This document shows positions 36,609-62,378 of a DNA stretch of 64,000 nt, piece after piece. The position numbers were made by a program, and so were the translations under genes. How positions within the stretch are numbered: the stretch's first letter is position 1; each line of letters starts with the position of its first letter. The DNA lies in contig JACQQX010000016.1 of NCBI GenBank assembly GCA_016206805.1, positions 13,256-77,255 on the forward strand, given 5' to 3'. The notes under the pieces are model-generated. The model was not told where the DNA came from. It searched no databases and was given only the letters and a program-made list of their open reading frames with translations. The DNA is from Candidatus Omnitrophota bacterium. GTDB lineage: Bacteria; Omnitrophota; Gorgyraeia; 2-02-FULL-51-18.

Positions 36609-38396
36609 TTATATCGCATAGCGATAAATGCTGTACACATACTTTGCTTTACCCTCACTATGCGCATACTCAAAAACCTTTTCATACGGATGCGTCTGGA
36701 CATATTTCCGTATTTCCGGATCAGAGCCTTCTTCCACCCATATAAACGTAAAATGTTCGCGATCCAGATACTCTGCCCAAGCGATGCCCTGTCTCTCCAG
36801 CCTATTTTTCAAAGCCGCCGTATAAAATACGGCTTTATCCGGCCGCTGGCGATAAAACCGGCGGGGCTGGGCGGAAAGAAAAATACTCTCTTTTGGATCG
36901 GCGTGGCGGTTCAGATAATCAAACCCGCGAAAAGAGCGCTCATTTTTCAAAAGATAATCGCGGGCGTTTTCCGCTCCCAGCGCTACCGGCCAGGCATTCC
37001 ACGTTTGACACACAAATATCGCGCCATGAAGAACTAAAGCGCTGTAGAAAAGAAGCTGCGTTGTTTTCCATAGCGCCGCCCCATAACTCCTAGCTTTCGC
37101 AAAAGCAAAGCCGGCTCCGACAGCCGCGTAAGGCGCCAGCATAAAAAGAAAACGCGCGGCCTGCTGGGTGAATACAAGAAGATATATCGAAAACGTATAA
37201 AAAAGGAATGCTCTTTGTGTTTTTGTATTGCGCACACTAAGCGCCATAAGCGGGAGCAGCATCAAATAAAGAGGGCCTATTAATTCTCCCAGAGGAAACG
37301 CGTCCGGATGCAAGGTAAAATTCCAGGGCAGCTTAATAAAAGCCGGGAAATCCTGCCCCATGCCGGTCAGCCGGTCAACGGAGTCCTTAAAACCATTCCC
37401 TCCGAATAGGCCTGATAAAAAAGGATAAATAGGATTCCCCGCCAGGATCCAACTGCGCGCATACCAAATCCCTCCGGTCAACGCGCAAGCCGCCATAAAA
37501 TAAAAAAGAAGTGACGCCTTTTTTAAATTCCAGCTTTGGATAATCCATAAAACAACCAGCGGTATCAGCGCCCCAAAGGCGAGATACTTCGTCCCTAAAG
37601 CACCCCCGCACAGCAGGCCGGACAAAACCGCGTTATTTTTTTTATGAGAGAATGGGACGAGAAACGCGTAAATCGCCGCGAAAGTAAAAAAAACGATGCC
37701 CAGCTCCACATAAGCTTTTGAAGACTGAAAAAAAGCCAGCGGCGTGAATAAAAATACGAGCATCGCCCATTCCGCTTCTTTTTTCCCGCCCTGAAAACGC
37801 AGCACAAACGCGTAAATGGCGTAAGCGGTTAAAACATAAAATGCCCAATGAAAAAGATGGGCCAGTATCGTGCCCTGAAGCAGCAGCCCCAGCGTAAAAA
37901 ACATTTCCATTTGATACGGCCACAAGGATTCACGGGAATCTGGGATCGCAAAAATCTTGCCGCTTTCGATAAACTCGCGAGGATGCGCCAGATGATACAC
38001 CAGCGCGTCATGCCCAGTCGGAGGGGCCAGCGCCTGAAGCCAGGAGAGAAAAAGAGCTAATGCAATCCACATCCACGTCGTTTTGGAGAATTCGGGCCAG
38101 CCCTCCGCTTTTTCTTTTTGGCCGGTCAGTGAAAAAATAAACAATAAACCGGCCAAGCCAATGGCGACTTCTCGTCGCAGCATTCCCAAAAGGCCGATGG
38201 CTAAAACACCCAACGCCAAAAGCGCCATTCCCATAGCCGTAAAAAAGATGCGCTTTTCATGGACGGAGAACTCCGCGGCGGAGCCTCCGGATAAACCCCA
38301 AATCCTGGCGCCCACACGATAAGCCGACCACACCAGCAGGGCTAAAAGTGAGCTGGCCCAAAGGGCGGGCCCTATTCCCTGCGTCACAAAAGACAT
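36609..38396 (-). CDS. GT-C-fold integral membrane glycosyltransferase (ArnT/PMT family 39/83-like)
   Basis: More than 10 hydrophobic helices with an acidic/His-containing first extracytoplasmic loop (PPTGHDALVYHLAHPREF). Start set at MSFVTQG, forming a 1-nt overlap with the upstream gene; the ORF could extend to 38507. Confidence 0.5.
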   Translation of the reverse strand: MSFVTQGIGPALWASSLLALLVWSAYRVGARIWGLSGGSAAEFSVHEKRIFFTAMGMALLALGVLAIGLLGMLRREVAIGLAGLLFIFSLTGQKEKAEGWPEFSKTTWMWIALALFLSWLQALAPPTGHDALVYHLAHPREFIESGKIFAIPDSRESLWPYQMEMFFTLGLLLQGTILAHLFHWAFYVLTAYAIYAFVLRFQGGKKEAEWAMLVFLFTPLAFFQSSKAYVELGIVFFTFAAIYAFLVPFSHKKNNAVLSGLLCGGALGTKYLAFGALIPLVVLWIIQSWNLKKASLLFYFMAACALTGGIWYARSWILAGNPIYPFLSGLFGGNGFKDSVDRLTGMGQDFPAFIKLPWNFTLHPDAFPLGELIGPLYLMLLPLMALSVRNTKTQRAFLFYTFSIYLLVFTQQAARFLFMLAPYAAVGAGFAFAKARSYGAALWKTTQLLFYSALVLHGAIFVCQTWNAWPVALGAENARDYLLKNERSFRGFDYLNRHADPKESIFLSAQPRRFYRQRPDKAVFYTAALKNRLERQGIAWAEYLDREHFTFIWVEEGSDPEIRKYVQTHPYEKVFEYAHSEGKAKYVYSIYRYAI

Positions 38397-40855
38397 TATC
38401 CGCCCCACGCTTTCGGAACAATAACCCATAAAAGATAAAGGGAGAAAACAATTCCCATCCAAATCGCGATCAGCAGCGGAGCTTTCCGTTTTTTCCAATA
38501 GAGCCACAAAAACAAGCTTCCCAACAAGACCCAGGCCGCGTTCGAAATGAGTTCAAGAAAATCATGAAACCGGTAGTCATAAAAAAACTCAACTTGATGG
38601 CGGCCTGGCGTTTCAAGCCGTATTCCGCACAACGCGTGATTCACCGGCATCAGCCGGGTCTCCACTCCATCCACCGCGGCCTTCCATCGGGGATAAAACA
38701 CTCCTGAAAAAACAACAACCGTCGGCCGGTCAATATCCAGCGCTGCTCTTGCATGATCCTGGCTATCTTTTTCAATAACAACAGGGATATCCGCGCCGGA
38801 GGAGCCGATGGACGAATCGGCTTCTCCTTCCAAGACAGCTTCGCGGCGTGGATTAAAAGCGGGGCTTTTTAAATAGGCCAGCCTCTCCTCTTTGGCATCC
38901 AAGGATTTCCATTGGGCCACGGCATAAATCCTGGGCAACGCATCGGCGTTCCGGTAAATCCAATGCCGGCCCAATTGTTCCAAAAATACAAGGCCTTCCA
39001 AAACCAATTCTTTGTCCGCCACGACAACCGTAACGCCCAGCATATCCAAAAGCGGTTTTTGATTCCTCCACACGTGAACCGATGTCGGCCGGCGGCCTGT
39101 AGAGCTATCCACAAAACCTAAATCTCCAAAAAGCTCCTCATATCTTTTGATCGTTAGCGGCGAATAAATACCCGCATGCCGTATGCCGTAAAGCATATTG
39201 GAAGAAGCCTGCAGAGGCTCTCCGCCCGGATGATCGGATAACTCGGCGACCACTCCGCCCCACTCTTTTTGGAGGCCTTGCACGCGCTGGATAAGCGCGG
39301 TTTCTGTGAAAGGTATTTTTCCGGCATTCCCAATAAACCCAACGCCCGCCGGACCGCCCCACACCGCGGCGCCAAAACCATACAAATCCACGATCAAAAG
39401 CGCAAAAGCCCAATGCGCCAAACGCCGTCTTTTAGCCGGGGTTGCATCTGCCCGAAGCGCCGCGTAAACAATAAAAACGGAAAGGCTTGCGAAAACAGCG
39501 GTCAAAATATTCTGAATGGCCAAAGGGTTCAAATGCTCCTGCAAAACCGAGAATAAAAAGCGCATTTTATCCTGGTAATATTCAGGCGCTTTGGCCAAAG
39601 CGCCTTTTTGGAGGGCTATTTTTTCAGCGAAGGCATGGCCTTTTTGAAGCCAAAAATCCTGCGAGGCCCTGAAAAGAAAGGACGCGGCCAGAGGGAACAA
39701 GGCGATCAGGCTTCCCATAAGGGTCAGCGCCGGCAACGCCTTTTTCCAAACTGTTTCTTTTAAAAAAATCTTATCAAAACCAAAACCGGCCGCGAACGAT
39801 AACGCCATCGCCGAGAAAAAAAGAAACTTGGAGGGATTGCGAAAAGCGGTTAGCGAAAACTTTTCGACGACAAAAGCATACAAAGGATTATATTTTCCCA
39901 AAGCCAGCAAGGCGAAGATGAGTGCCAGCCATAAAAGTTTTTTTTCTTTCGCGGTTTTTGGTAAAACCAGCGATGCCGCCAAACAAAAAAGAGGAAAAAT
40001 TCCAATATAAAAACTGACGCTTAAAAAACGGCTGATACTGGGAAAAATAATCGAGGCTAAGGCCGGAGGCATCACCGATCCCCATAAAGCGAACTCCGGC
40101 GTTTGGCCCTGCCGGGTGGAGGCCGACGCCAGCTCTGCCGTAGCTCCGATTTGCGGCAAAGCCAGTAAAACAGAAAAAGCGAAACAAATTCCAAAAAAAG
40201 CAAAAAGATTCGGGCGTTTTTCACGGACCAGCGCCATGTCCAAAGCCAAATACCCAACCGCATAAACAGCCAACTGAGGAAAACCGGCTGTTTCCATTTG
40301 TGAAAATAAAAAGGCAAGCCACGCTCCCCAAAAACTTTTTTCCAGCCATCCCTCTCTTTCACGGACATGTTCTAAAATCCATAGACACCAGGGAAGCCAT
40401 GTCAAAACGCGTAAAGTGCCCGTCGTATAAAAACAACCGCCGTACGTGGTGGAAAATGAAAAAAGAATGGCCGAGAAAACCGCGGCTTTACCGCTTTGTC
40501 CGATTTTACCGGCGTAAAGATAGGCCCCTATCCCTCCGGCAAGCACATGAAGCACGATGCCCCAAGTATAGGCCGCCTCAAACGGCAGCAACCGGTACAA
40601 CCATTGATGCAGCCAATAATAAGCGGCCACTTGGCCCTCCGCCACCAGCGGAAAACCCAAAGCGACTAGATTCGTCCAATAAGGAAGGCTTCCCCCCTCC
40701 AACGCAGAGGCGTAATGAAAACTCCAGGGATAAAACTGCACCCAATAATCTCCGCCGATGAAAGTCTGCTTCAGAAATACCAGCGGCCATAAAAACAGCA
40801 GAAAAATCAGGCCATAATAAAAAATAAAATGGGAATGGCGTTTAGCGAAGCTCAT
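38396..40855 (-). CDS. YfhO-family membrane protein (large GT-C-like glycosyltransferase, 819 aa)
   Basis: N-terminal pattern FIFYYGLIFLLFLWPLVFLKQTFIGGDYWVQFYPWSFHYASALEGGSLPYW and overall topology (~12 TM plus a large C-terminal extracytoplasmic domain) are typical of YfhO. Confidence 0.55.
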   Translation of the reverse strand: MSFAKRHSHFIFYYGLIFLLFLWPLVFLKQTFIGGDYWVQFYPWSFHYASALEGGSLPYWTNLVALGFPLVAEGQVAAYYWLHQWLYRLLPFEAAYTWGIVLHVLAGGIGAYLYAGKIGQSGKAAVFSAILFSFSTTYGGCFYTTGTLRVLTWLPWCLWILEHVREREGWLEKSFWGAWLAFLFSQMETAGFPQLAVYAVGYLALDMALVREKRPNLFAFFGICFAFSVLLALPQIGATAELASASTRQGQTPEFALWGSVMPPALASIIFPSISRFLSVSFYIGIFPLFCLAASLVLPKTAKEKKLLWLALIFALLALGKYNPLYAFVVEKFSLTAFRNPSKFLFFSAMALSFAAGFGFDKIFLKETVWKKALPALTLMGSLIALFPLAASFLFRASQDFWLQKGHAFAEKIALQKGALAKAPEYYQDKMRFLFSVLQEHLNPLAIQNILTAVFASLSVFIVYAALRADATPAKRRRLAHWAFALLIVDLYGFGAAVWGGPAGVGFIGNAGKIPFTETALIQRVQGLQKEWGGVVAELSDHPGGEPLQASSNMLYGIRHAGIYSPLTIKRYEELFGDLGFVDSSTGRRPTSVHVWRNQKPLLDMLGVTVVVADKELVLEGLVFLEQLGRHWIYRNADALPRIYAVAQWKSLDAKEERLAYLKSPAFNPRREAVLEGEADSSIGSSGADIPVVIEKDSQDHARAALDIDRPTVVVFSGVFYPRWKAAVDGVETRLMPVNHALCGIRLETPGRHQVEFFYDYRFHDFLELISNAAWVLLGSLFLWLYWKKRKAPLLIAIWMGIVFSLYLLWVIVPKAWGG

Positions 40856-42591
40856 GCGGGATCGAAAGCGTATAGCTCGAGATAGGGGCCGGGACGGTTC
40901 CGGGAAAAAAGCTCTCCGGCATCAAAAGGCAGCGCCACATGGGCCCACCGGTCTTCAGTCATGATCTTGCGGCTGTCCTTGTAGGGCGAAAATACTTTGA
41001 GAAGCCGCATGCTCGGCTTTAACTGGCGGTCAAAAATCTCTGTTTCTCCCGGATAACGGTAACGGACAAAATAAGCCACGTTCTTTTCTCTGAACTCATT
41101 CACGTCCGCGCCAATCAGCGGCGGCCATAATAGAAAGGGGGTTTCCTCCAAACCTTCGGCGTTCAAATAAAAAATACGATGGGTCTTTTTGTCTTTCTGC
41201 GCTTCCAGCATCCATTGGATTTTTTTGGCCTTCAGCTGTCCATGCGGGTCTTCCGCGTTGATTTTTCCTGATTTTTTTAAGATTTCTTCCGGCACTTGAA
41301 CCAGTGGCGGAGAAAAGAAAGGGTGATCCACTACGATGGAGGCGCCCGCCGGCACTTCTTTTTGAATCCATTCATTCACTAAAACCCGTGTATCCGAAAC
41401 CGGCAGAAGACGCGACAACTGCACATCTTTGACCAGCGATGGAAGTGAAATAGCCAATACCACGGCCAGCCAGAATGGGCCGCGGACCCTGGACACCATC
41501 CAAGCCGCGCCCAAACATAGAAATGGAATAATGGGCATCGCGTAACGCTCGTAATGCTGGCTGAATAAAGCGATCATCACGTAATAAACAAAAGGAAAGG
41601 CCGTCAGCCATCGTTTTTCTGGAAATTTAATCCAGAAGGTCACAAGCCCCGCCACACCCACCGCCAAAAGCGGCCAGCCTACTCCCCCACCCAAAGAATA
41701 CCGCAGATGATGGAAAAAGGGCATGGCCGACTCCGACACCGCCTGCTGCCGTATCTCGGAGATGAAAAAAGGAAAGTCCAAAAAGCTGAAAGGGTTGAGT
41801 GTCGCGTAAGTAACCCCCGTCAAAACTGCGGCGCTCAAAAGCCGTTTTCTAAAAAATAAAAAAGGCAGGGCCACGGGAGCGGCGATGTATTTGAGCGCGA
41901 CGGCGATTCCCGCCGCTACGGCCGCCATATTCCAATAAAACACCTTTCCGCTTTTTTGATATTCCGCCAATAAATCAAAAGTCACCAGCATCGCCAGAAT
42001 CATGGGGATGTCCGCATACAGATAATGCGAGTCCCGAACGGGCATATAAGCCAGCGCCATGAAAAAAGCCGCCGCTACTGCCGTTTTTTCATCCCACAGT
42101 TTCCGCGCCAAACGGTAAAGAATGATAACCGAAGCCGCGCCCGCCAAAGCTCCAAAAATCAAGCGGCCAGCCAGATAAAAAACGGTTGGGTCCTTAAAAA
42201 ATAAAATCGCGAAATCCTGGACACTCCAGCGGTAAATCAGCGCCGCGGCCAGATAGAGGATGCCGTAAACGCCGGCCAAAAGATAAGACAAGAGCGGCGG
42301 GATTTTAAAAAAATGGGGATTCAGGTTCCCTGAAGCAAAAGCCAACGCATGATTGACGATGATAGGCTCATCCTGATGGAAAAGATGCGGCAATCCAAAA
42401 TCAATACCGATACAGCGTATCGCCAGCGCCCCCAAAAAAACGAGCCCAATCGCTTTTCCCTTCACCGGGCCACGGCCTTTACGATAAAAAGCAGCGCGAA
42501 ACGGTCCGGCCAAATACGCGCCATGCGATAACGGATGCCAAACGGCAAGAGACTCAACGTCAGGTTGACGCATTGAATGGCTTTGCGCCAA
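40852..42591 (-). CDS. GT-C-fold membrane glycosyltransferase (PMT_2/ArnT-like, polyprenyl-phosphate-sugar dependent)
   Basis: About 11 TM helices with conserved acidic residues in loop 1 (LFHQDEPIIVNHALAF) and a C-terminal soluble domain. A possible GTG start at 42465 would avoid the 130-nt overlap with the methyltransferase gene. Confidence 0.55.
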   Translation of the reverse strand: MAQSHSMRQPDVESLAVWHPLSHGAYLAGPFRAAFYRKGRGPVKGKAIGLVFLGALAIRCIGIDFGLPHLFHQDEPIIVNHALAFASGNLNPHFFKIPPLLSYLLAGVYGILYLAAALIYRWSVQDFAILFFKDPTVFYLAGRLIFGALAGAASVIILYRLARKLWDEKTAVAAAFFMALAYMPVRDSHYLYADIPMILAMLVTFDLLAEYQKSGKVFYWNMAAVAAGIAVALKYIAAPVALPFLFFRKRLLSAAVLTGVTYATLNPFSFLDFPFFISEIRQQAVSESAMPFFHHLRYSLGGGVGWPLLAVGVAGLVTFWIKFPEKRWLTAFPFVYYVMIALFSQHYERYAMPIIPFLCLGAAWMVSRVRGPFWLAVVLAISLPSLVKDVQLSRLLPVSDTRVLVNEWIQKEVPAGASIVVDHPFFSPPLVQVPEEILKKSGKINAEDPHGQLKAKKIQWMLEAQKDKKTHRIFYLNAEGLEETPFLLWPPLIGADVNEFREKNVAYFVRYRYPGETEIFDRQLKPSMRLLKVFSPYKDSRKIMTEDRWAHVALPFDAGELFSRNRPGPYLELYAFDPA

Positions 42592-43217
42592 TAAGAAGGG
42601 TTGCGGCGGATATCACTCACAATCGAGTCCCGCATCGAATAAGCCGGGACATAATCGGTCCATTCAATCGCAAAGCCGGCTTTCTTAAGATCATCAATGA
42701 GTTCATTCAGACGATAACGTCTCACATGATGCACGCCATCGGCGCGCATATTGGGCTGACCCACATATAAAACGCCGCCAGCCTTAAGAACATCATGAAC
42801 TCCACAAAGTGTTTTATTGGGATAATGCAAATGCTCCAGCACTTCAAAACAAAATGCGACGTCATAACTGGCCGCTTCCATCGGAAAACGCTTGCCAATA
42901 TCCCCAAAGATCGCATGAAACCCGGCCTGGCGGGCCGCCTCAAGCCCCGACTGACTGATATCCAGGATGTGCGCGCCTTTAAACCCTAAATACTGCATCA
43001 GTTGGCCATTTCCTCCGGCCACATCTAAAATCTTGTCGCCACTGCGAACCTGGAGGCGCGAACGAACCCGGTCATAAAGCTTTTGATAATAAGCCCGTCG
43101 CGTGCGCTGGAGAGCCTCATCTTTCCAATAATCTTTGTAATACTCCTGGGCATGCACGGAGGGGGATTCCATTAAACGGCCTTCTTTCGCAGCGGCAGCC
43201 ACCGGATATTGTCCCAA
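42462..43217 (-). CDS. Class I SAM-dependent methyltransferase
   Basis: ILDVAGGNGQLMQYL motif I, AHILDIS motif II, and VLYVGQPN post-II. Alternative start MESPS (43172). Confidence 0.7.
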   Translation of the reverse strand: MGQYPVAAAAKEGRLMESPSVHAQEYYKDYWKDEALQRTRRAYYQKLYDRVRSRLQVRSGDKILDVAGGNGQLMQYLGFKGAHILDISQSGLEAARQAGFHAIFGDIGKRFPMEAASYDVAFCFEVLEHLHYPNKTLCGVHDVLKAGGVLYVGQPNMRADGVHHVRRYRLNELIDDLKKAGFAIEWTDYVPAYSMRDSIVSDIRRNPSYWRKAIQCVNLTLSLLPFGIRYRMARIWPDRFALLFIVKAVAR

Positions 43218-44632: not shown

Positions 44633-45615
44633 CGGGGCTGAATATCGATATTGACCGCCTCATGGACGATAAAAAGCGGCCGGCGTTTTACTTCCGAATA
44701 AGTCCGGCCGACATATTCACCGAGTATTCCAATGCCCAGACTGTTCAAACCGATGGCCGCCAGGATCAAAAGAATCACTGTCGGAATACCGGGAGGCGGC
44801 GTGCCTTGAATGGTCAACCAAAGATAAAAGATGAACGCCAGCGACGTTACACCCAGAAGAATAAACCCCATCATGGTAAAAATCCTCAGAGGTTTGAGTG
44901 AGAAACTCGTCACCGCGTTAAAAACAAAAACCAAAAGATACCAGAACGGCGCTTTGCTTTTACCGGCCTTACGGGGCTTGCGCTCATAAGGAACACCGGC
45001 CTGCTTGAAACCCAGCCAGGAAATCAGCCCTCTCAGATAACGGTTCACTTCCCCACATTCTAAAAACGCGTCGCGAACCTGCCGAGTGATCAACCGAAAA
45101 TCACCGGCATTAACGGGAATGGAAACATCTGAAGCCCATTGAATAAGGCGGTAAGCGATCTTCACGGCAAAATTCCGCCACGCCGGTTCGCCGGGCCTTG
45201 TAGTGCGAACCCCATAAACAACATCATACCCTTCACGCCATTTCTCAAGCAGCAGCGGAATGGCTGACGGCGGATCCTGCAAATCCGAATACAGCACAAT
45301 GATGGCGTCCCCAGAAGCGTAGCGGTAACCGGCCGTCATCGACATTTCAGCGGTAAAGTTACGACTCAGACGCAGGTATTTCCAGCGATTATCACGACCG
45401 CATATTTCTTTGACCAATTGGCCGGTGCGATCGGTGCTGCAATTATCGATGATAAGGAATTCAAAACGATACGGCAGGCCGTTCAGGGCCTCGTTGATTT
45501 CTTTTTCCAGAAAAGGAATATTTTCTTCTTCGTTGTAGGCCGGTATCACCACTGAAACCAGATTCATCGCTTGGATTCCCCCGCTTTCGTGAGTTTTTGC
45601 TGGGCCTGATTCCAC
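44629..45615 (-). CDS. GT2 polyprenyl-phosphate sugar synthase (GtrB/ArnC/DPM1-like, with two C-terminal TM helices)
   Basis: LVSVVIPAYNEEENIP...LIIDNCSTDRTGQL...DLQDPP plus C-terminal membrane helices (FTMMGFILLGVTSLAFIFYLW). Confidence 0.75.
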   Translation of the reverse strand: MESGPAKTHESGGIQAMNLVSVVIPAYNEEENIPFLEKEINEALNGLPYRFEFLIIDNCSTDRTGQLVKEICGRDNRWKYLRLSRNFTAEMSMTAGYRYASGDAIIVLYSDLQDPPSAIPLLLEKWREGYDVVYGVRTTRPGEPAWRNFAVKIAYRLIQWASDVSIPVNAGDFRLITRQVRDAFLECGEVNRYLRGLISWLGFKQAGVPYERKPRKAGKSKAPFWYLLVFVFNAVTSFSLKPLRIFTMMGFILLGVTSLAFIFYLWLTIQGTPPPGIPTVILLILAAIGLNSLGIGILGEYVGRTYSEVKRRPLFIVHEAVNIDIQPR

Positions 45616-54320: not shown

Positions 54321-54335
54321 AAGAGTTGAATTTTA

Positions 54336-55949
54336 TCATAGTTTTTCCCTTAAATCATAGACAAAAACCGAGTGCCCAAGGACATGCGTGGGCCTAGCCC
54401 CGCGAGTCCATTCGAACCCCTCTAGGAAATGGGCGCCAAGCGCGTAAACTGTCTTTTTGGGATTATTAAACTCATCGGGTGTGGCGGAACGGCTAGGAAT
54501 GCCATAATAGGCCGGATCGGCAGATTGATGAAAAGCCAGGACCACTTCCGGGTATTTTTCTTTCTGAACCAGTTCACCCAATAGCTTCATGTCCTGCCCC
54601 CAATCCAGATTAGAGTCCCGAAGCACTTTATAACCATTTTGCGGACCGCCGGCCAGCTGATTGAAATAAGCCAGATGATGAGGAAAGATCCGCAAAGCCT
54701 CAGCCGCATGCCAAACCATGAAAACCACAACCACCGCCTTAAAAAACGCTTTCTTTTTCCATAAATAAGCGCTCACCCCTCCGCCCAAAATAAAAATCAG
54801 CGGGTAAATCGGCAGAAAATAACGAATACCGGCCTGAGCCTTATCCCGGAAAGTGACTAAAAAGAAAAATAGGATGGGGAGAATAAGAATAACTTTGCCA
54901 AGCTTGTCCAAGCCCAACCGCGAAAGAAAAGCCAGGGAAAGAATAAACAGCAAAAGAAGCGGAATGGTATTTTTCACCGCGAAAGCGACTGGATAATAAT
55001 ACCACCATCCCTGCCTTGACCATTCTCCCATCAAAAAAGCACGGGTTCCTTCACCGCGCGTATGCGTCATACCCGCCACCGCCGAAAAAAAGGTCGCCAG
55101 CGGAACGGGCGTCTTCCGCGCAAACTCTACCATGGACTCGCCACCCAACTCCCTGACAAATTCTGTTTTGGCTTCCACGTGGGTGACATGCGACAAAACC
55201 GGCTTCATTTCAAAAAAATAACCGGCCCAAACGGTGAACAAACACACCGATGAAAAAATAATGATGTTTCGGATGGAAAAAAACCGGCCGCGTCCCGTGA
55301 TAATCCCGGCAACCAAAAAAATCGGGAAAAGCAGGATCGCGCTAAATTTGGACAGAAGCGCCAAGCCCGTCAAAACTCCCGTTCGGTAAACCCCCGGAAG
55401 GCCAGGCGTTCGCAGCCACGACGCAAAACTCATCAAAGCCAGAAAAAAGAAAAACGCCACGGCCAGGTCCGCGGTCGCCAGTCCCGAATGGGCCACGATA
55501 TCCGGACAAAAAACATATAACGCTAGGCTCGCCACAGCCGCCCATTCCCCGAAAAATATTTTCGCGAAATAAAAAACAGCCCAGGCGAAAAAAAGCGACA
55601 GGAGGACTATCGGCATACGGGACCAAAAAAGAAAATGCTCCATCCCTTGATTGGAGCGGTAAAAAAGATCCTGCGCGAAAGCGGGACTATCGGCCGCCTC
55701 CCAAGCGGGGCCGGTCGGGAAATTTAATTTCATTATCACCAGCGGCAACGACGATAAAAGCCGCGGGAGAGGTGGCGAAGCCGGGTTCATCCGGAAATCC
55801 CGCCTCATCCAATACGAGTAACCGCTGGAAACGTGATGCGTCAGCTCATCCGCGGTCGGAGACTTGAATCGCATGGCAAAAACCGTTTGCAGAAAAAGAA
55901 CCGTCAGGAGCCCAATGACGGTGAGTCGAATAGACCATTTCGCTTTCAT
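54336..55949 (-). CDS. GT-C-fold membrane glycosyltransferase (ArnT/PMT-like)
   Basis: The first extracytoplasmic loop carries a DE motif (PTADELTHHVSSGYSYW). About 12 hydrophobic helices and a C-terminal soluble domain. Confidence 0.55.
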   Translation of the reverse strand: MKAKWSIRLTVIGLLTVLFLQTVFAMRFKSPTADELTHHVSSGYSYWMRRDFRMNPASPPLPRLLSSLPLVIMKLNFPTGPAWEAADSPAFAQDLFYRSNQGMEHFLFWSRMPIVLLSLFFAWAVFYFAKIFFGEWAAVASLALYVFCPDIVAHSGLATADLAVAFFFFLALMSFASWLRTPGLPGVYRTGVLTGLALLSKFSAILLFPIFLVAGIITGRGRFFSIRNIIIFSSVCLFTVWAGYFFEMKPVLSHVTHVEAKTEFVRELGGESMVEFARKTPVPLATFFSAVAGMTHTRGEGTRAFLMGEWSRQGWWYYYPVAFAVKNTIPLLLLFILSLAFLSRLGLDKLGKVILILPILFFFLVTFRDKAQAGIRYFLPIYPLIFILGGGVSAYLWKKKAFFKAVVVVFMVWHAAEALRIFPHHLAYFNQLAGGPQNGYKVLRDSNLDWGQDMKLLGELVQKEKYPEVVLAFHQSADPAYYGIPSRSATPDEFNNPKKTVYALGAHFLEGFEWTRGARPTHVLGHSVFVYDLREKL

Positions 55950-57469
55950 GGATTCCCCGCCTCATTCAGCCGGAATATCAGATACCGCTCCGCTTCCCGA
56001 TGTACCGAAAAATGCGTCCGCAGATAATCCTCAAAACCTTTTTCCGCTACGGCCAGGTTTTGCCGCGTCGTGACAAAATAATCCGCTCCTTTTTTCCTCA
56101 TTTCCTCCAACTGCGGGATGGATTTTTCGAGCGGGTGCGAAATCGTAATGCTCCATCCTTTCCGGTGGCAATAATAAAGAAGCGAGTGAGTGGACCCATA
56201 GGAGCTGACGATCAGCGAATCAGGCGCCGTCGTTTTCCGGACTTCCTCTCCCGCCTCAATCACATGAAGATGTTCCTTCGGAATAAAATAAAGCCCCCGA
56301 TAATAATAATAAAGTGTGGCAACCGTCATCAGCGTCATAATCCCCAGAACTATCGGCTTAAGCGCCCATTGACGTGTTTTCGGATCATCCAAAACCCGCT
56401 TGGTTCCCACACCCACAAAAACAGCGCACACCGGAAGCATGGCCAACAGATAATAATGATTCATGATGAAAATCGGCCATACCGCGGCCAAGAAAAGAAC
56501 GATGCCAAAAAACCAGACATAAAAAATCAGGCTTTCCTTTTCCGGTTTCCGGTTTAAAAAACCCAGCAGAAAAAGAATTGAGGCAACGGGTGTGAGCACG
56601 TGAATGAAAAATATTTTGAAAATCGTCACAAAGTGTCCGAGGGACAAAAGATATCCCCAGCTCAAAGGTACGACTCCCCGGTCATAGGCCAGTGTCCGGT
56701 AATTCTGGTTCATGGTAAGGGACAGCTCGTACATATTCCAGTACCAAAAAAGCGATAGGGCCGCCACCGCCAGATAAAAATAATATTTTGGGTCACGAAA
56801 AATACTCTTCCCTTGGGCGTTCCAAGCCATCACAAAAATAACCGGAAGCAAATAAAGCGTGTAAGGTTTGGTCCACAGCGCCAGCATCAAAAAAATGAGC
56901 GAGATGAAAAAATGCTTCAGGCCTCGCGTCCGACAGTACTCATAAAAAAAATAAAGGCAGGAAGCGCTGGCCAGCAACATAAACATGTCCGGCTGCACCG
57001 AACGGCTGAAGGCCACGCTAATGGGAGAAAACGCCAGAAAACATAAAGCCGCATTGGCCGCGACAATACCGTAGATCCGCTTCACGAACAAAAACATCAC
57101 CAGCATGAAAAGAAGGGAAAATAGAACCGAAACCATGCGACCGGCCCATTCCCGCACTCCGCCTGCCGCCTTGTAACTCAAAGCGATCAGATACGGCACT
57201 ACCGGCACTTCGGCGGTTTCATAATAAGGGCCTGGACCGTTCAGATCGATCTCGGGATAAAAAAAGTTGAAACCATGTTCGTAAAAATTCCGCGCGATCG
57301 TAGCGGTAGTCATCTGACGGCTGACGCTATTGTAAGGTTCCATGTAAGGCAGATCCAGATGATAGAAACGCACGGCCACCGCGGCAAAAATAATCAGCCA
57401 GAACGCGGCCTTTGCCTTACCCTTCACTTGACACCTCCCCGGCTCACTTGTAAAATCCTCGAATGCCAT
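55946..57469 (-). CDS. GT-C-fold membrane glycosyltransferase (ArnT/PMT_2-like)
   Basis: An ArnT-like N-terminal region (LDLPYMEPYNSVSRQMTTATIARNFYEHGFNFFYP) and about 12 TM helices. Confidence 0.55.
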   Translation of the reverse strand: MAFEDFTSEPGRCQVKGKAKAAFWLIIFAAVAVRFYHLDLPYMEPYNSVSRQMTTATIARNFYEHGFNFFYPEIDLNGPGPYYETAEVPVVPYLIALSYKAAGGVREWAGRMVSVLFSLLFMLVMFLFVKRIYGIVAANAALCFLAFSPISVAFSRSVQPDMFMLLASASCLYFFYEYCRTRGLKHFFISLIFLMLALWTKPYTLYLLPVIFVMAWNAQGKSIFRDPKYYFYLAVAALSLFWYWNMYELSLTMNQNYRTLAYDRGVVPLSWGYLLSLGHFVTIFKIFFIHVLTPVASILFLLGFLNRKPEKESLIFYVWFFGIVLFLAAVWPIFIMNHYYLLAMLPVCAVFVGVGTKRVLDDPKTRQWALKPIVLGIMTLMTVATLYYYYRGLYFIPKEHLHVIEAGEEVRKTTAPDSLIVSSYGSTHSLLYYCHRKGWSITISHPLEKSIPQLEEMRKKGADYFVTTRQNLAVAEKGFEDYLRTHFSVHREAERYLIFRLNEAGNP

Positions 57470-58203
57470 CCATAGCCGTCATACCCACTTACAATGAAAA
57501 ACAAAATATCGAAGAATTAATTTCTCAAATCCTGGAAACCGATCCCAACATTCACATCCTCATCGTCGACGACAAGTCTCCTGACGGCACGGATCAACTC
57601 GTCCGGGAAGCCGCCAAACGCTCCGCGCGCGTGCACCTTCTGTCCCGGGAGGGAAAACGGGGACGCGGCCTGGCCGGCATCACTGGGTTTCAATACGCCG
57701 TGCGCGAAGGATTCGATCCCATCCTGGAGATGGATGCTGACTTTTCGCACGACCCCAAAGAAATCCCCCACTTTTTGGAAGCGATCCGTTCCAGCGACGT
57801 AGTCATCGGATCGCGGTTTGTCGCCGGCGGCGGAGAGTCAGGAAGAGGCATGCACCGCCGCCTGCTATCACGGGCGGCCAACAAATTCACACGCACCGTT
57901 CTAGGCCTGGCCATCAAAGACTGCACATCCGGTTTCCGCTGCTTTCGCAGACGAGTCTTGGAGTCGCTTCCACTTCAGGATATGTTCTCTGAAGGACCCT
58001 CGATCATCGCCGAAGTCCTATGCGCCTGCAAAGCGCGCGGCTACTCCATCCGCGAAATACCGATTTGGTTTAAAAATAGAGGCCGCGGGAAATCGAAATT
58101 AAATGCCTGGAAAGTACTGATCGTCCTTTGGAATGTCGTGCGGGTTTCCCTCCACCCGCAACCGACCGTTCACGCGCGCGCCAGCGGATCGATTTCAAAA
58201 TAG
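57463..58203 (+). CDS. Polyprenyl-phosphate mannose/sugar synthase (DPM1/Ppm1-like GT2, soluble)
   Basis: IAVIPTYNEKQNIEEL...ILIVDDKSPDGTDQLV...LEMDADFSHDP...VVIGSRF are canonical DPM1-like motifs. This is one of only two plus-strand genes. Confidence 0.8.
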   Translation: MPSIAVIPTYNEKQNIEELISQILETDPNIHILIVDDKSPDGTDQLVREAAKRSARVHLLSREGKRGRGLAGITGFQYAVREGFDPILEMDADFSHDPKEIPHFLEAIRSSDVVIGSRFVAGGGESGRGMHRRLLSRAANKFTRTVLGLAIKDCTSGFRCFRRRVLESLPLQDMFSEGPSIIAEVLCACKARGYSIREIPIWFKNRGRGKSKLNAWKVLIVLWNVVRVSLHPQPTVHARASGSISK

Positions 58204-58766
58204 CAAACATTTCCAAAAAAAACGCCTCTTTGGCGGAACTCCCGAACGCTCAGCCCCTTCAGCGTTTCACGCCACTGATCTTTTCGAAGATAAGCTTTTC
58301 CGCCATCAAATAAATCCCAATATTTTTTTTGAAGCCATCCACGAAACCGCCCATCATGCCGGATATGGTCCAGGACCAGTACCCTCTCCTTGGCCACACG
58401 CTGGGCTTCGCTCAAAACCTTCGCCCATTTCTCGAAGTCGATGTGATGCAAAACAAAAAAAATGGTGACCAGGTCAAAACTTTTGTCCTTGAAAGGAAGC
58501 GCATCGGCGGAGGCCACAAGACATTGGGAGCGCGGATATTTTTGCTTACAAGCCTCAACCATTTCAGGCGAATTGTCGACAGCGGCATGTTGACGGGTCC
58601 GCTCAGGCGAATAATATAACTGCAGCGGCCCGCAGCCGATGTCCAGAACGCTCTTGCCTCCGGTCAAAGCATCCACCGAAAAACCGCCCAAACCATTCAC
58701 CGCGCTAAGCGCCCTATTTTTGTATTCATACAACGATGGAAAACGGAAAATATTTTCAGGGTTCAT
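58170..58766 (-). CDS. Class I SAM-dependent methyltransferase
   Basis: VLDIGCGPLQLYYS motif I, AVDNSPEM motif II, and FDLVTIFFVLHHI. Its 3' end overlaps the convergent plus-strand GT2 gene by 34 nt. Confidence 0.7.
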   Translation of the reverse strand: MNPENIFRFPSLYEYKNRALSAVNGLGGFSVDALTGGKSVLDIGCGPLQLYYSPERTRQHAAVDNSPEMVEACKQKYPRSQCLVASADALPFKDKSFDLVTIFFVLHHIDFEKWAKVLSEAQRVAKERVLVLDHIRHDGRFRGWLQKKYWDLFDGGKAYLRKDQWRETLKGLSVREFRQRGVFFGNVCYFEIDPLARA

Positions 58767-58769
58767 CGT

Positions 58770-59711
58770 TTAAAGGTTGACCGCTTCATCGATAATGGTC
58801 ATCGGCTGGTTTTTAACCTGCCGGTAAACCCGGCCCAGGTATTCCCCGATAATCCCTAAAAAAATGGCGTTCAGAGTGATCGAAATCAAAATTAAAACGG
58901 AGAGCGTGATAAAACCGGCGGGCCATTCCTGATGAAACAGGAATTTAATGGCCAGAAGAATGCCCAGGTAAATGACCAGACCCCCCGCGATGAGAAAACC
59001 GGTGAAAGACGCCAGGCGCAAAGGGACCAGCGAGTGGTTCAAAATACCGTCCATGGCCAAGGCCATCAATGAACCGAGACGAAACTTGCTTTCTCCATGC
59101 TGGCGGGCCAAACGATCGTATTCGATGCCGGTTTGATTGAATCCGAAAGCGGCGATAGTCCCGCGGATATAAGGGCTGGCATCGTAAAGTTTTCTCAACT
59201 GGTCCACAACCTTGCGGCTGACCAGCCTGAAATCCCCGGCATCATGCGGGAGGCCGTCATCCGATAAAAAGTCGATCAGTCGGTAAAAAATCCTCCTGAT
59301 CCGTCCCAATAACCAGCCTTCGCGCCTTGTCCGGCGAATGCCGTACACCACTTCATAGCCCTGTTTCCACTTTTTGACAAAATCCAAAATCAGCTCCGGA
59401 GGGTCCTGCAAGTCACAATCCATCTGGATGACAGCATCTCCCGAAGCCAGGCAATAGGCGGTAAAAATAGATTTTTGGTATCCAAAATTTCTTGAAAACC
59501 GGGCCACTTTCACGCGGGAATCACGCGCGGCCAGTTGTTTTAAAAGAAGAAAGCTGCCGTCCGTGCTCCGGTTATCGGTAAAAACAAATTCATAATCAAA
59601 CTCGGGGAGGCTGCTGAGAACGGCTTTTGTTTTTTCATAAAAAAGCGGGATATTCTGCTCTACGTTATAAACCGGGATGACAATGGATAGCATTTCTTTT
59701 TTATCGCTCAT
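58770..59711 (-). CDS. GT2 polyprenyl-phosphate glycosyltransferase (GtrB/ArnC-like, C-terminal TM helices)
   Basis: LSIVIPVYNVEQNIPLF...FVFTDNRSTDGSF...DCDLQDPP plus C-terminal membrane helices. Confidence 0.75.
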   Translation of the reverse strand: MSDKKEMLSIVIPVYNVEQNIPLFYEKTKAVLSSLPEFDYEFVFTDNRSTDGSFLLLKQLAARDSRVKVARFSRNFGYQKSIFTAYCLASGDAVIQMDCDLQDPPELILDFVKKWKQGYEVVYGIRRTRREGWLLGRIRRIFYRLIDFLSDDGLPHDAGDFRLVSRKVVDQLRKLYDASPYIRGTIAAFGFNQTGIEYDRLARQHGESKFRLGSLMALAMDGILNHSLVPLRLASFTGFLIAGGLVIYLGILLAIKFLFHQEWPAGFITLSVLILISITLNAIFLGIIGEYLGRVYRQVKNQPMTIIDEAVNL

Positions 59712-60594
59712 AGACGCGCCTGATCCCCTCTTTTAGAGAAACTTTCGCCTTCCAACCGGGCAAAAACCGGACATTCCCCGGATCCATGATTTCGCGTGGA
59801 CGATAGGGCCGCCCTCCCCAGTTCACCTTCAGCTTTTCGCCGGAAACATCCTCATAAATCCGGACGACTTCCCTCAAGCTGTGTTTGGCGCCAGTCCCAA
59901 CCGCATAGCTGGAATGCAGAGCGTCTTTTCTTTTTTTACACAACAGCTCCGCGGCATAAATAAAAGCGTCTACGACATCCGTGATATAAACATGGTCCAG
60001 TTTTTGGCGCCCCGGACTCAAATCCAATGTTTTTTTATTTTTGATCGATTGCGCGATGTGATGAAAGAGTTTGGGGCGAGTGTCATTGGGACAATACACA
60101 TTATAAAGCTTTAAAGTCAGGCTGGTGATCGGTGTTGTTTCGGTGTAATAACGGATGATGTCTTCAAAAGCCTGCTTGGTCGCGGCGTATAAATTGACCG
60201 GATTATACGCTTCATTGGCGTAATGCTGCCAATAAGTGCCGGCATTCACCAAATACCGGCAATCCGTCTGCCGCATGGCTTCCAGAATCTGAGTCCCCAA
60301 GAGAACATTGGACTGGATAAGGGGTTCAATGTCGGAAGGTTCATGCTCGATCAAAGTCGACGCCGCCAAATGAAAAACCACCTGAGGCTTTTTCTTCTGA
60401 AATACGCGCATAACCGACTGGGTGGACCCATCATAACTACAGATGGATCCTGAAGAAAGGGATTTGGCGGGGCTTTTTTTTAGGGAGCCGGGCCGCACCA
60501 AAAAACAGAGCTCCCATCCTCTGGCCAGAAGCTCCTGGGATAAGTGACGGCCAATGATCCCGGTCACGCCGGTAATTAACGCTGATGGACGCAT
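59701..60594 (-). CDS. NAD-dependent epimerase/dehydratase (extended SDR)
   Basis: ALITGVTGIIGRHLSQELLARGWEL Rossmann motif and a YAATKQAFE catalytic Y-x3-K. Confidence 0.7.
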   Translation of the reverse strand: MRPSALITGVTGIIGRHLSQELLARGWELCFLVRPGSLKKSPAKSLSSGSICSYDGSTQSVMRVFQKKKPQVVFHLAASTLIEHEPSDIEPLIQSNVLLGTQILEAMRQTDCRYLVNAGTYWQHYANEAYNPVNLYAATKQAFEDIIRYYTETTPITSLTLKLYNVYCPNDTRPKLFHHIAQSIKNKKTLDLSPGRQKLDHVYITDVVDAFIYAAELLCKKRKDALHSSYAVGTGAKHSLREVVRIYEDVSGEKLKVNWGGRPYRPREIMDPGNVRFLPGWKAKVSLKEGIRRVYER

Positions 60595-60660
60595 CTGACT
60601 CCCCTAAAAAGACTTAGGATAACGGATGAGATTATCGAATGCAATCGTTTTATGTCCGTC

Positions 60661-60690
60661 TTGGAAAAAGAGCCCTCTTTGTGCTAGAAT
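60661..60690 (+). promoter_or_regulatory. Candidate sigma70-like promoter for the plus-strand membrane-protein gene (TTGGAA -35, 18-bp spacer, TGnTAGAAT extended -10)
   Basis: Read from the sequence: ttggaa(60661..60666)-18 nt-TGcTAGAAT(60682..60690), only 5 nt before the ATG at 60696. This implies a leaderless or near-leaderless transcript. Sequence match only. Confidence 0.2.
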
Positions 60691-60695
60691 CCGGC

Positions 60696-62378
60696 ATGTC
60701 AAAAAAATGGATTATCGGGATCCTTTTGGCCCTCATCGGTTTTTCCTGGGCTGCCTTCCTCACCGAAAATCTTCCCTTTAACACGATGGACGACATGAAT
60801 TACCTGTACCAGGCAAAGGCCAATTCATTCCCCGCCGTTCTCAAGCGCATCGCCAATCCGCTGACGCCTACTTGGACCTATCAGTTTGGGAGCATTGTTG
60901 GAGACCAGCGGCTAATGGGCCTCAGGCCGGTAGAGCTTCTATCCTGGAAAGTGCTATTGGCCCTGTTTCATTATGATCCGGCGCCTTATTATCTTTTTAA
61001 GGCATTATGGCTGGGCATTATCGGCGTCTTTATCTTTGGCTTTATCTTATTTTTAACCCGCAACACGCTCATTTCTTTCTTGGCGGGGATTTTTTACTGC
61101 ACCACATTGCCCAACTTCATGACACTGTTTTATTTGTCCGATTTTGGATTGCTCGCCCAAATTTTTCAAGCGGCGGCAATCACTTTCTTTTTATTGATTT
61201 ACTTTCGGATTGAAGAAGGACGATTCACCGCCCGCCAAACTCTTTTATCTTGCCTGGGGCTTTTAGCCATCACGCTCTTGGGGATCAAAACCTATGAAAC
61301 GATTAAAATCCTGCCCCCTCTCTTTCTAGGCTTTTTATTCCTGAAAAATGTGCGCAATATTCCGCGATGGCTGGGCAACAGCCGGCAAATTATTTTACTC
61401 AGCGCCGTACTTCTCGGTTTTCTCATGGTCGTCCCGATAACCACAAGCTTTCAGGCTGTTGATACCAGTGGGAATGTTGCCAAAAACACTCCTCTGGTCT
61501 ATCACTGGGACACGGTGTACCGCTTTCTCATTCAAAATACCCGCAACGCCTGGGAAACCGAAGGGGACATCGCGTTTTTTTCGCTGAAATCCTATCTCCC
61601 CTTTTCCATCGCCAGAACGTTTGGGTTTTTTCTCTGCTGGCTCACTTTATTTTCAGCGCTTTGGATGGCCTTCAAACGCAACACGGGAAAGCTTGAGGCG
61701 CGGCAACGCCATACCGTTCATTTTCTGGCCCTCTGGGCGCTGGCTAATCTTGTGGCCCTGGGGCTGCCGCAAGAATCCGACGGCCGCCATCTCATGGCGC
61801 CGCTTATCCCTTTCACAATAGGCGCCGCGTTTTTAATCACGCAAACTTATCGCGGCCTCTCCAAAACCATAGCGAAGATTTTTGTCACTTTCGGCCTGGT
61901 GGGATGGGTTTTCGCTACCCTCACGAACATGAACCATGATATGTACTTCCGGAAGTTTCTGGGTGGCGTCTCAATCGCCCAGGAGAAATACATGCCTTTC
62001 ATCTATAAGGACGATCGTGGCAGCGAGTCTTACAATTTTGAAAACCTGATGGCGTACATGCGCGTGCCCGAGGGGTTATGCATATGGAACATGCGCTTTA
62101 TCGTGGACGATCTTTACGGAGACTTCAGCCAGCTGTCAAAACCGGAGAAACTTTTATCACTCCATCGCGAGTTTGGGAAAGCGTATCTGGTCACGCAGGA
62201 TGAAGGCTTGATACCGGCCCAGGACAAACGTTATGTGAAGCTGGGAAGCTTCGACCAGGTCAACAAAAGCTTATACAGCCGGTGGGTGCTCCGCTTCAAA
62301 AAAAAGAAGGCCGGAATCCATCACGTTTACAAATTTATTCCGATACAAGATTCTGCCGGGACAACCATTGCGCGATAA
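60696..62378 (+). CDS. Polytopic integral membrane protein, probable GT-C-like glycosyltransferase or polymerase (uncharacterised)
   Basis: About 12 hydrophobic helices, acidic residues in the first loop (NTMDDMNYLYQ), and a C-terminal soluble domain. Start chosen at MSKKWIIG; the ORF opens at 60639. No family signature recognised. Confidence 0.4.
   Translation: MSKKWIIGILLALIGFSWAAFLTENLPFNTMDDMNYLYQAKANSFPAVLKRIANPLTPTWTYQFGSIVGDQRLMGLRPVELLSWKVLLALFHYDPAPYYLFKALWLGIIGVFIFGFILFLTRNTLISFLAGIFYCTTLPNFMTLFYLSDFGLLAQIFQAAAITFFLLIYFRIEEGRFTARQTLLSCLGLLAITLLGIKTYETIKILPPLFLGFLFLKNVRNIPRWLGNSRQIILLSAVLLGFLMVVPITTSFQAVDTSGNVAKNTPLVYHWDTVYRFLIQNTRNAWETEGDIAFFSLKSYLPFSIARTFGFFLCWLTLFSALWMAFKRNTGKLEARQRHTVHFLALWALANLVALGLPQESDGRHLMAPLIPFTIGAAFLITQTYRGLSKTIAKIFVTFGLVGWVFATLTNMNHDMYFRKFLGGVSIAQEKYMPFIYKDDRGSESYNFENLMAYMRVPEGLCIWNMRFIVDDLYGDFSQLSKPEKLLSLHREFGKAYLVTQDEGLIPAQDKRYVKLGSFDQVNKSLYSRWVLRFKKKKAGIHHVYKFIPIQDSAGTTIAR

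Follow-up and report, generated by a model that had tools for sequence, protein, structure and literature searches.

The closest described systems to the one considered here are the three-component glycosylation systems, GtrA/GtrB/GtrC of Shigella and Salmonella phages and CsbB/GtcA/YfhO for lipoteichoic acid (PMC8035078, PMC11127046). In these systems a GT2 (family 2 glycosyltransferase) forms a polyprenyl-phosphate monosaccharide, which a second enzyme hands on beyond the cytoplasm. A GtrB-type GT2 with two C-terminal helices and an extracytoplasmic glycosyltransferase of the C fold (GT-C), including a YfhO or YfhO-like member, encoded by adjacent genes, are shared with a 64,000-nucleotide stretch of an Omnitrophota genome (assembly GCA_016206805.1, contig JACQQX010000016.1, positions 13,256 to 77,255), hereafter the window. 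However, the described systems have one enzyme of each type, whereas positions 36609 to 62378 of the window encode seven GT-Cs, and the window has three or four synthases, lacks a GtrA/GtcA gene and belongs to a diderm candidate phylum. On balance we consider it somewhat probable that this span is the core of a lineage-conserved envelope-glycan locus of Omnitrophota, operating a multi-branch form of the GtrB/GT-C three-component scheme.

Loci with multiple GT-Cs are known in Corynebacteriales. The mycobacterial and corynebacterial arabinogalactan and lipomannan/lipoarabinomannan (LM/LAM) systems (EmbA/B/C, AftA-D, MptA/B, PimE, Ppm1 and decaprenylphosphoryl-arabinose synthesis) likewise combine many clustered GT-Cs with few polyprenyl-phosphate donors; a GT-C of the MptA_B family occurs in related Omnitrophota loci, and the structural matches of one window protein, designated G below, include AftA and EmbA/B. 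However, the enzymes are not orthologous at the sequence level, they serve different types of envelope, the window has no decaprenyl-phosphoribose pathway, and the sugars predicted here are a branched 3,6-dideoxyhexose and a nonulosonic acid. The Pgf operon of Streptococcus mutans (PgfS-PgfM1-PgfE-PgfM2), considered together with GtrB-dependent O-glycosylation of proteins in streptococci (PMC11092751), likewise groups a PgfS-like GT2, a 4-epimerase-like short-chain dehydrogenase/reductase (SDR) and GT-Cs, but the window proteins reach less than half of the equivalog cutoff and have no linked substrate adhesin, and the GT-Cs are more numerous and interleaved with genes for polysaccharide O-acylation. 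The ArnC/ArnT pathway of lipid A aminoarabinose modification was also compared, since the window GT2s are ArnC-like over their full length and G has ArnT as one of its structural matches; identity with this pathway was rejected, because equivalents of ArnA, ArnB and ArnD were not seen in the window and the ArnC scores are far under the 529-bit cutoff.

Because every component type is already known, the array extends an established mechanism and reveals no new one. Three features are new, namely a GT-C array of seven families that is conserved in a diderm candidate phylum, a GT-C family that is almost without Pfam coverage and is backed by a confident predicted model, and the coupling of a GT-C array to a branched-sugar pathway with a JanthE-type carboligase and a DmpFG pair. 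The Omnitrophota are abundant, uncultivated, mostly ultra-small and probably host-dependent bacteria, which presumably attach to hosts or prey by means of their surface. In the literature searched no account of such an array in Omnitrophota was found, nor was the phylum paired with GT-C, family 39 or YfhO; the main Omnitrophota genome survey does not mention glycosylation or lipopolysaccharide (LPS), and envelope glycans are not described in the Omnitrophota genome papers checked. The array provides a concrete genetic handle on the surface of these bacteria, as a defined gene set for transcriptomes, proteomes and heterologous reconstitution.

Seven GT-C proteins and their lipid-linked sugar synthases

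The window has a GC content of about 0.50, and the minus strand holds nearly all of the genes. Pfam and NCBIfam scans of all window open reading frames (ORFs) of at least 100 aa identified a GT9 heptosyltransferase, GT2 and GT4 enzymes and a Wzx-type flippase, in addition to a nonulosonic-acid pathway, an MBOAT/AlgX acyl-transfer module and the GT-C span, showing the whole 64 kb to be a single surface-glycan super-locus. No tRNA or Rfam features were found in the window. The GT-Cs, GT2s and methyltransferases are the following.

GT-C A: 36609..38396, minus strand; 595 aa from the ATG at 38396 (longest ORF to 38507); PMT/GT39-like
GT-C B: 38396..40855, minus strand; 819 aa; probable divergent member of the YfhO family
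GT-C C: 40852..42591, minus strand; PMT_2; probable GTG start at 42465
GT-C D: 43172..44632, minus strand; PMT_2, GT39-like
GT-C E: 54336..55949, minus strand; PMT_2
GT-C F: 55946..57469, minus strand; PMT_2; probable GTG start at 57427
GT-C G: 60639..62378, plus strand; likely start at 60696; family almost without Pfam coverage
gt2a: 44629..45615, minus strand; GtrB/ArnC-type polyprenyl-phosphate sugar synthase; GT2 98 bits
gt2b: 58770..59711, minus strand; GtrB/ArnC-type polyprenyl-phosphate sugar synthase
gt2s: 57463..58203, plus strand; short soluble GT2 resembling dolichyl-phosphate-mannose (DPM) synthase, AglJ and PpgS
gt2s2: 4619..5356, minus strand; short GT2, possible fourth synthase, weak call
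MT1: 42462..43217, minus strand; S-adenosylmethionine-dependent methyltransferase; Methyltransf_11 and related models
MT2: 58170..58766, minus strand; S-adenosylmethionine-dependent methyltransferase; Methyltransf_11 69.8 bits

An earlier note on this DNA, made from the sequence by eye and ORF list, had described at least seven large polytopic GT-C-like proteins in the span, one of them YfhO-like. All of the ORFs that it placed are present, and family models, topology, profile comparison and the predicted structure of G agree that all seven are GT-C-fold glycosyltransferases. Each protein is polytopic, as expected of GT-Cs, with 10, 15, 7, 8, 10, 8 and 11 predicted transmembrane (TM) helices in A to G, respectively. 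Protein A matches the Pfam model PMT with 28.7 bits (cutoff 22.7), and C, D, E and F match PMT_2 with 44.1, 55.7, 34.8 and 71.9 bits (cutoff 26.1), the match of D spanning the whole model.

Protein B (NCBI HY592_01225), which has a large extracytoplasmic loop, has no Pfam match itself, including to YfhO at E<=0.01. It has 126 homologues, mainly from Omnitrophica, and 22 of the 29 family members scanned, which are 27-48% identical to B, match PF09586 YfhO (best E 6.8e-34), so that B is assigned by transitivity, through these relatives, as a probable divergent YfhO member. Since comparison of the B and D families by hhalign detects no relation between them (1.7% probability), this YfhO link is the whole basis of the GT-C status of B.

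Protein G (HY592_01320, on the same 85,234-bp metagenome-assembled contig of a Candidatus Omnitrophica bacterium) has no Pfam, NCBIfam or PDB sequence match; PDB sequence searches with A, B, F and the 620-aa protein at 12956-14818 likewise gave no matches. It has five close homologues, while a profile search retrieved 207 representatives among 1.84 billion proteins, and just six of 87 family members give any match to PMT_2, PMT or PTPS_related; a contig profile search with a narrow alignment yielded only two loci. The AlphaFold2 model built from an 87-sequence alignment has a pLDDT (predicted local distance difference test score) of 90.9 and a pTM (predicted template modelling score) of 0.91, and supersedes a model from six sequences with a pLDDT of 61. 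In a Foldseek search of the PDB with the newer model the best 25 matches are all GT-C, comprising STT3, PglB, AglB, DPY19, AftA, ArnT, Pmt4, ALG3, EmbA/B and Pmt1/2; the sole non-enzyme among them is a glycosylphosphatidylinositol-transamidase subunit of the same fold class, and transporters rank after the GT-Cs with a probability of <=0.1. The G and D families are related in hhalign comparison (95.6% probability, E 1.3e-8). By predicted structure and profile comparison G is thus a GT-C.

An acidic motif in the first loop is the catalytic hallmark of GT-Cs, as known from the structures of ArnT, PglB and PMT. Such motifs follow the first TM helix and are kept across orthologues in B (GDY), C (HQDEP), E (SPTxDE) and F (LExYN); in D the first-loop residues E78 and D80 are nearly invariant, in G an invariant MDD follows the first helix, and in A the first-loop HDAL was read from the single window sequence. 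Membership of fold or family, topology, these motifs, operon-like packing and conserved synteny are what the analysis shows of the array.

Whether Wzy-type polymerases, O-antigen ligases or flippase-associated proteins occur among the seven deserves attention, as neither Wzy nor WaaL is otherwise recognisable in the window, D gives a weak match to Wzy_C (PF04932; 16.3 bits against a cutoff of 31.7, E 0.009), the sole such signal in the window, and F gives a weak match of 24 bits to the Agl23 'flippase activity-associated' family. However, both signals are far below cutoff and are outweighed by the full-model PMT_2 matches of the same proteins, the first-loop acidic motifs are conserved, and the structural matches of G are exclusively GT-C. 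This explanation is hardly credible, and the reading of the proteins as GT-C transferases rather than transporters or polymerases stands.

In all-versus-all comparison the seven proteins are mutually unalignable, except for E and F, which share 32% identity over 155 aa. This excludes an assembly duplication, the prospect of which had been raised in the earlier note, and by sequence the seven are taken to be ancient, distinct families.

Among the GT2s, residues 20-324 of gt2a align end to end with GtrB of Synechocystis (5EKP, 244 bits), and gt2a matches ArnC over its full length with 163 bits (155-163 across the synthases). For gt2b the match to ArnC, also full-length, has 157 bits. Both proteins align end to end with PgfS as well, which is their top NCBIfam family (242 bits for gt2a, 213 for gt2b), but the scores of 157-242 bits do not reach the equivalog cutoffs of 500-529 bits (500 for PgfS, 529 for ArnC). 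The two proteins are 40% identical, and each has two C-terminal TM helices at about residues 240-300; they are assigned on these alignments as GtrB-type synthases, and not as ArnC or PgfS themselves. The short gt2s best matches the Dol-P-Man synthase of P. furiosus (5MLZ, 110 bits, residues 5-227), followed by ArnC, and its best NCBIfam families, AglJ, PpgS and Dol-P-hexose transferase, are all below their cutoffs. For gt2s2 the top PDB match is again a Dol-P-Man synthase, with only 55 bits, near generic GT2 scores; AglJ scores 76 bits against a cutoff of 325, and no GT-C gene adjoins it. Of the four GtrB/DPM1-type synthases that had been proposed from the sequence, gt2a and gt2b are full-length GtrB/ArnC-type enzymes and gt2s is probably DPM-synthase-like, while gt2s2 is at best a weak candidate for a fourth.

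The 19 minus-strand genes from F (57469) to an FkbH-like gene (33697) overlap or lie <=24 nt apart, so the GT-C genes are likely co-transcribed with GT2 and sugar-pathway genes. The overlap of gt2a and D is 4 nt; long overlaps vanish with the internal starts of C (42465), F (57427) and MT1 (43172) indicated by orthologue alignments, and the shorter start sites, 38396 for A and 60696 for G, are genuine ATG codons that agree with homologue alignments.

Gene order in related Omnitrophota contigs

Six related contigs, L001, L002, L007, L008, L009 and L010, representing the contexts of G and D homologues, were compared with the window by BLASTP. Identities of the orthologues and gene orders are as follows (MT, methyltransferase; HTH, helix-turn-helix gene).

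Orthologues of A: 38-41% identity
Orthologues of B: 42-48% identity
Orthologues of C: 46-50% identity
Orthologues of D: 52-55% identity
Orthologues of E: 50-56% identity
Orthologues of F: 41-61% identity
Orthologues of G: 47-50% identity
L009: GT2(GtrB-type)-MT-D-E'-C-B-A
L008: D-MT1-E'-AlgX-C-B-A-HTH
L010: E-GT2-MT-D-MT1-MBOAT-x-C-B
L007: E-F/gt2s/MT2/GT2/G
L001 and L002: B-C-(E')-F/GT2-epimerase-G

The orthologues of A in L008 and L009 are located straight after the YfhO-like gene, in L009 and L010 a GtrB-type GT2 gene comes before that of the D orthologue, and an epimerase gene precedes the G orthologue in L001 and L002. The order common to L008, L009 and L010 can be summarised as [GtrB-type GT2]-MT-D-MT1-(E)-C-B-A. 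Orthologues of MT1 (59-68% identity) adjoin GT-C genes in L001, L008 and L010, and L007 carries orthologues of gt2s (76%), between F and G, and of MT2 (72%). Protein D has 110 homologues with 37-56% identity, the named ones mostly from Omnitrophica. Since orthologues of 38-61% identity occur in conserved gene order, the array appears to be an old, lineage-conserved core rather than a recent or strain-level expansion. A classification of A and D as accessory genes, on account of their absence from L001 and L002, was rejected, as their orthologues were found in L008-L010.

These data also bear on the suggestion in the earlier note that a paralog-rich expansion provides variable or combinatorial surface decoration. 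A recent, genome-specific expansion would fit the observation that genomes differ in the supply block that precedes gt2a and D, with JanthE-like and DmpFG genes in the window against genes resembling the alpha and beta subunits of pyruvate dehydrogenase E1 (PDH-E1) elsewhere, and that the acyl-transfer module moves. However, the GT-Cs are unalignable to each other apart from E and F, orthologues of all seven are found elsewhere with their order kept, and the many homologues of D are likewise divergent, which largely refutes this explanation already and leaves it very improbable.

The sugar-supply and acylation genes are the only parts that vary between the genomes, the MBOAT/AlgX genes shifting in position. 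In L008 and L009 a DegT gene and a PDH-E1 alpha/beta-like pair are found where the window has the JanthE/DmpFG genes: an E1_dh and Transket_pyr pair with DegT genes is located at 1174-3164 of L008 and 4567-6544 of L009, upstream of the D-headed array, from which it is separated by a methyltransferase gene (both contigs) and GT2 genes (L009). This suggests that the PDH-E1-like pair supplies the same GT-C array by a different route, in which sugars are branched with two-carbon units. An additional GT-C of the MptA_B/GT87 family was observed beside a short GT2 gene in L001 (15043-16386), L002 (15489-16859) and L010 (610-1956).

The probable branched-sugar supply block

Four SDR epimerase/dehydratases were identified by Pfam along with the two methyltransferases, enzymes of both kinds having been named in the earlier note; all of the SDRs belong to the sugar-supply genes of the span, which are listed below.

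45564..46649, minus strand: SDR sugar-nucleotide reductase/epimerase; Epimerase 114 bits
46646..47827, minus strand: DmpG-type 4-hydroxy-2-oxovalerate aldolase; TIGR03217 397 bits, cutoff 286
47616..48521, minus strand: DmpF-type acetylating acetaldehyde dehydrogenase; TIGR03215 384 bits, cutoff 282
48518..50338, minus strand: YerE/ErwE/JanthE-type thiamine diphosphate (ThDP) carboligase (sugar C-branching); 825 bits to PDB 8RPH
50335..51306, minus strand: SDR reductase/epimerase; Epimerase 96.6 bits
51230..52546, minus strand: RfbH/E1 CDP-6-deoxy-4-hexulose 3-dehydrase; NF011936 730 bits, cutoff 423
52543..53559, minus strand: CDP-glucose 4,6-dehydratase-like SDR; TIGR02622 230 bits, below the cutoff of 278, best-scoring family
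53520..54320, minus strand: glucose-1-phosphate cytidylyltransferase RfbF; TIGR02623 322 bits, cutoff 300
59701..60594, minus strand: GalE-like sugar-nucleotide epimerase; Epimerase 121 bits

The cluster at 46646-54320 unites RfbF, the dehydratase, the E1 enzyme and the YerE-like ThDP enzyme. The best PDB match of the latter, 8RPH, is JanthE, with which it shares the unusual CDG motif for ThDP (residue 451). DmpG forms 4-hydroxy-2-oxovalerate from pyruvate and acetaldehyde, the latter being produced from acetyl-CoA by DmpF, and the genes of both enzymes directly adjoin the carboligase gene. With its ThDP carboligase and DmpFG pair, the block looks like a complete pathway for a CDP-activated 3,6-dideoxy branched sugar, although no ferredoxin-reductase-type protein that could serve as the E3 reductase (RfbI/DdhD) is present among the window ORFs; the gene of that reductase may lie in another part of the genome.

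ErwE, a relative of the carboligase, joins 4-hydroxy-2-oxopentanoate with CDP-4-keto-3,6-dideoxyglucose to give erwiniose, and JanthE takes 4-hydroxy-2-oxovalerate (PMC12247030, PMC12188165), while the physiological substrates of JanthE are not established (PMC12188165). Since DmpF and DmpG would furnish the keto acid that is taken by JanthE/ErwE enzymes, the product of the block is most likely an erwiniose- or caryophyllose-like branched sugar. The window thus places a JanthE-type carboligase beside enzymes that would make both 4-hydroxy-2-oxovalerate and CDP-4-keto-3,6-dideoxyhexose, and the adjacency of DmpFG may indicate the natural role of JanthE-type enzymes. The described pathways of erwiniose, caryophyllose and yersiniose (YerE, ErwE, MMAR_2332, JanthE; PMC12247030, PMC12188165) resemble the window in RfbF, the dehydratase-like SDR, RfbH and the ThDP carboligase; in contrast to them, the window carboligase adjoins a DmpG/DmpF pair able to make its donor, E3/RfbI is missing from the window, and that the product feeds GtrB and GT-C enzymes is something we infer.

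Proposed scheme, acceptor and neighbouring modules

In the scheme that we favour for the array, gt2a, gt2b and one or two of the DPM-synthase-like GT2s would load single sugars onto polyprenyl phosphate at the cytoplasmic face. These sugars would come from the neighbouring epimerases and the CDP-3,6-dideoxy branched-sugar pathway, and may be modified by the two methyltransferases. After flipping, the seven non-redundant GT-Cs would each transfer a lipid-linked sugar to a different acceptor position at the periplasmic face. Of these enzymes, gt2a and D would form one donor/transferase cassette, possibly for the branched sugar. Since seven transferases would share three or four donors, each donor probably serves several linkages or sites, as in mycobacterial LM/LAM. 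The identity of the donors, the pairing of the enzymes, their order of action and the acceptor are what we infer in this scheme.

The small number of donor synthases for seven GT-Cs could also mean that these enzymes are elongating or branching polymerases in the de novo periplasmic assembly of a lipoglycan, similar to LM/LAM or arabinogalactan, and do not add single side branches. This would agree with the presence of the additional MptA_B/GT87-family GT-C in related loci and with the retention of the enzyme set at 38-61% identity, which suggests a conserved backbone. However, the window itself has no MptA_B member, its cytoplasmic GT2, GT4 and GT9 enzymes together with Wzx could make a backbone conventionally, and processive and single-addition GT-Cs are indistinguishable by sequence here. 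De novo assembly by the GT-Cs is accordingly judged decidedly unlikely.

An exo-facial acceptor had been suggested in the earlier note, which is sensible for GT-Cs located alongside GtrB/DPM1-type synthases and sugar-nucleotide enzymes. In the scheme of single-sugar addition the acceptor would be a polysaccharide with a lipid or LPS anchor, made by this 64-kb locus itself, and not a protein. O-acyl transfer by MBOAT and AlgX/SGNH proteins acts on exported polymers; in L008 and L010 the genes of such proteins are interspersed with those of the GT-Cs, and in the window they come straight after A. The characterised YfhO enzymes glycosylate teichoic-acid polymers (PMC5836110, PMC8035078). The locus context, namely the Wzx-type flippase, the GT9 heptosyltransferase and the nonulosonic-acid pathway, also points towards a polysaccharide. 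Because the O-acyl-transfer genes are interleaved, characterised YfhO enzymes act on polymers and the locus has no linked substrate protein, we favour a polysaccharide or lipoglycan as the acceptor, at a confidence that we would call evenly balanced.

Several points weigh against the proposed scheme. No GtrA-type flippase, initiating phosphoglycosyltransferase, Wzy or WaaL was recognised in the window, which makes the link to an LPS or O-antigen acceptor circumstantial; as for GtrA/GtcA (about 120 aa, four TM helices), no such window ORF or Pfam match was found, and the intergenic gaps are too small. The host is an uncultivated metagenome-assembled genome, from whose genes the system is predicted. 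Every GT2 score is under the NCBIfam equivalog cutoff. To our knowledge, GtrB-type enzymes use UDP or GDP sugars and not CDP sugars, and it is adjacency that connects gt2a to the CDP-branched sugar. The PMT and PMT_2 families also contain protein O-mannosyltransferases, and the GT2-epimerase-GT-C grouping recalls the streptococcal Pgf protein-glycosylation operon.

The last two points would be accounted for by a protein O-glycosylation machine of the PMT/Pgf type, in which the GT-Cs modify Ser/Thr-rich secreted or surface proteins, such as pilins, S-layer proteins or the giant adhesin-like proteins typical of Omnitrophota. The match of A above the Pfam PMT threshold, the rank of PgfS as the top NCBIfam family of both gt2a and gt2b, and the order gt2b-epimerase-G, which mirrors PgfS-PgfE-PgfM, are consistent with such a machine, and in streptococci systems of GtrB and GT-C enzymes attach O-glycans to disordered parts of membrane proteins (PMC11092751). 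However, the PgfS scores are far under the 500-bit equivalog cutoff, no candidate substrate protein was found in the 64-kb window or the six related loci, and the TPR and MIR domains of protein-directed PMT/TMTC enzymes were not detected. Moreover, the GT-C genes are interleaved with MBOAT/AlgX genes inside a locus with Wzx, heptosyltransferase and nonulosonic-acid genes. Protein O-glycosylation is an unlikely explanation of the array, though a serious rival.

If the glycan-directed scheme is extended to its full reach, the array would build a major envelope lipoglycan characteristic of the phylum, assembled for the most part at the periplasmic face by at least seven dedicated GT-Cs, the family of G among them, in which gt2a and D move a CDP-activated erwiniose-like sugar via polyprenyl phosphate. 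We attach little credence to this extended version; were it true, gt2a would be the first CDP-sugar-dependent GtrB-type synthase and JanthE-type carboligases would gain a physiological role.

Downstream of the GT-C genes, positions 29567-36584 (minus strand) encode a Dlt-like acyl-transfer module that comprises a MaoC dehydratase, a FabG-like SDR, an FkbH-like loader, a carrier-like ORF, an MBOAT protein, a 382-aa protein and an AlgX/SGNH protein. The carrier-like ORF (33465-33707) was unannotated and codes for 80 aa with a PP-binding match of 20.0 bits and a DSL motif. The composition of the module suggests glyceryl or hydroxyacyl esterification of the exported glycan.

A 77-aa HTH_17 ORF (29210-29443, minus strand) is located immediately upstream of NeuB. 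In L001, L002 and L008 the same small HTH gene separates the GT-C array from the sugar genes that come next, which makes it a conserved boundary or regulator. The nonulosonic-acid pathway (19835-29223, minus strand) is represented by NeuB, a PglD-like acetyltransferase, a CBS-DegT protein, a GFO oxidoreductase and a CMP-type cytidylyltransferase, and the same region includes HisH/HisF-like genes and a gene for a 400-aa protein without a Pfam match; the set is reminiscent of pathways of acetamidino-modified legionaminic or pseudaminic acids.

The region 9182-18898 (minus strand) encodes a fusion of a pyruvate-kinase barrel and an adenylylsulfate kinase (9931-11580), a CDP-alcohol phosphatidyltransferase, a HAD phosphatase, a 2-hydroxyacid dehydrogenase, a second cytidylyltransferase, a fumarylacetoacetate (FAA) hydrolase, a protein resembling glyceraldehyde-3-phosphate dehydrogenase and the 620-aa protein, which has a weakly TagF-like C-terminus. 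This unusual gene set possibly serves to make a substituent of the phospho-glycerate or polyol-phosphate type. The short GT2 gene gt2s2 has as neighbours a B12-binding radical-SAM enzyme and a methyltransferase (3160-4668, minus strand), which could function in sugar C-methylation.

In the first 1.28 kb (positions 1-1281) none of the frames has an ORF that reaches 100 aa, and neither a tRNA nor an Rfam match was found; this end of the locus may hold the remains of a gene or a long leader that codes for no protein. At the other end, upstream of an SGNH/GDSL gene (62335-63588), the C-terminal fragment of a membrane protein with four TM helices (63552-64000, minus strand) runs off the window; it has no Pfam match and no similarity to the window MBOAT protein, and could belong to a further acyltransferase or an eighth GT-C.

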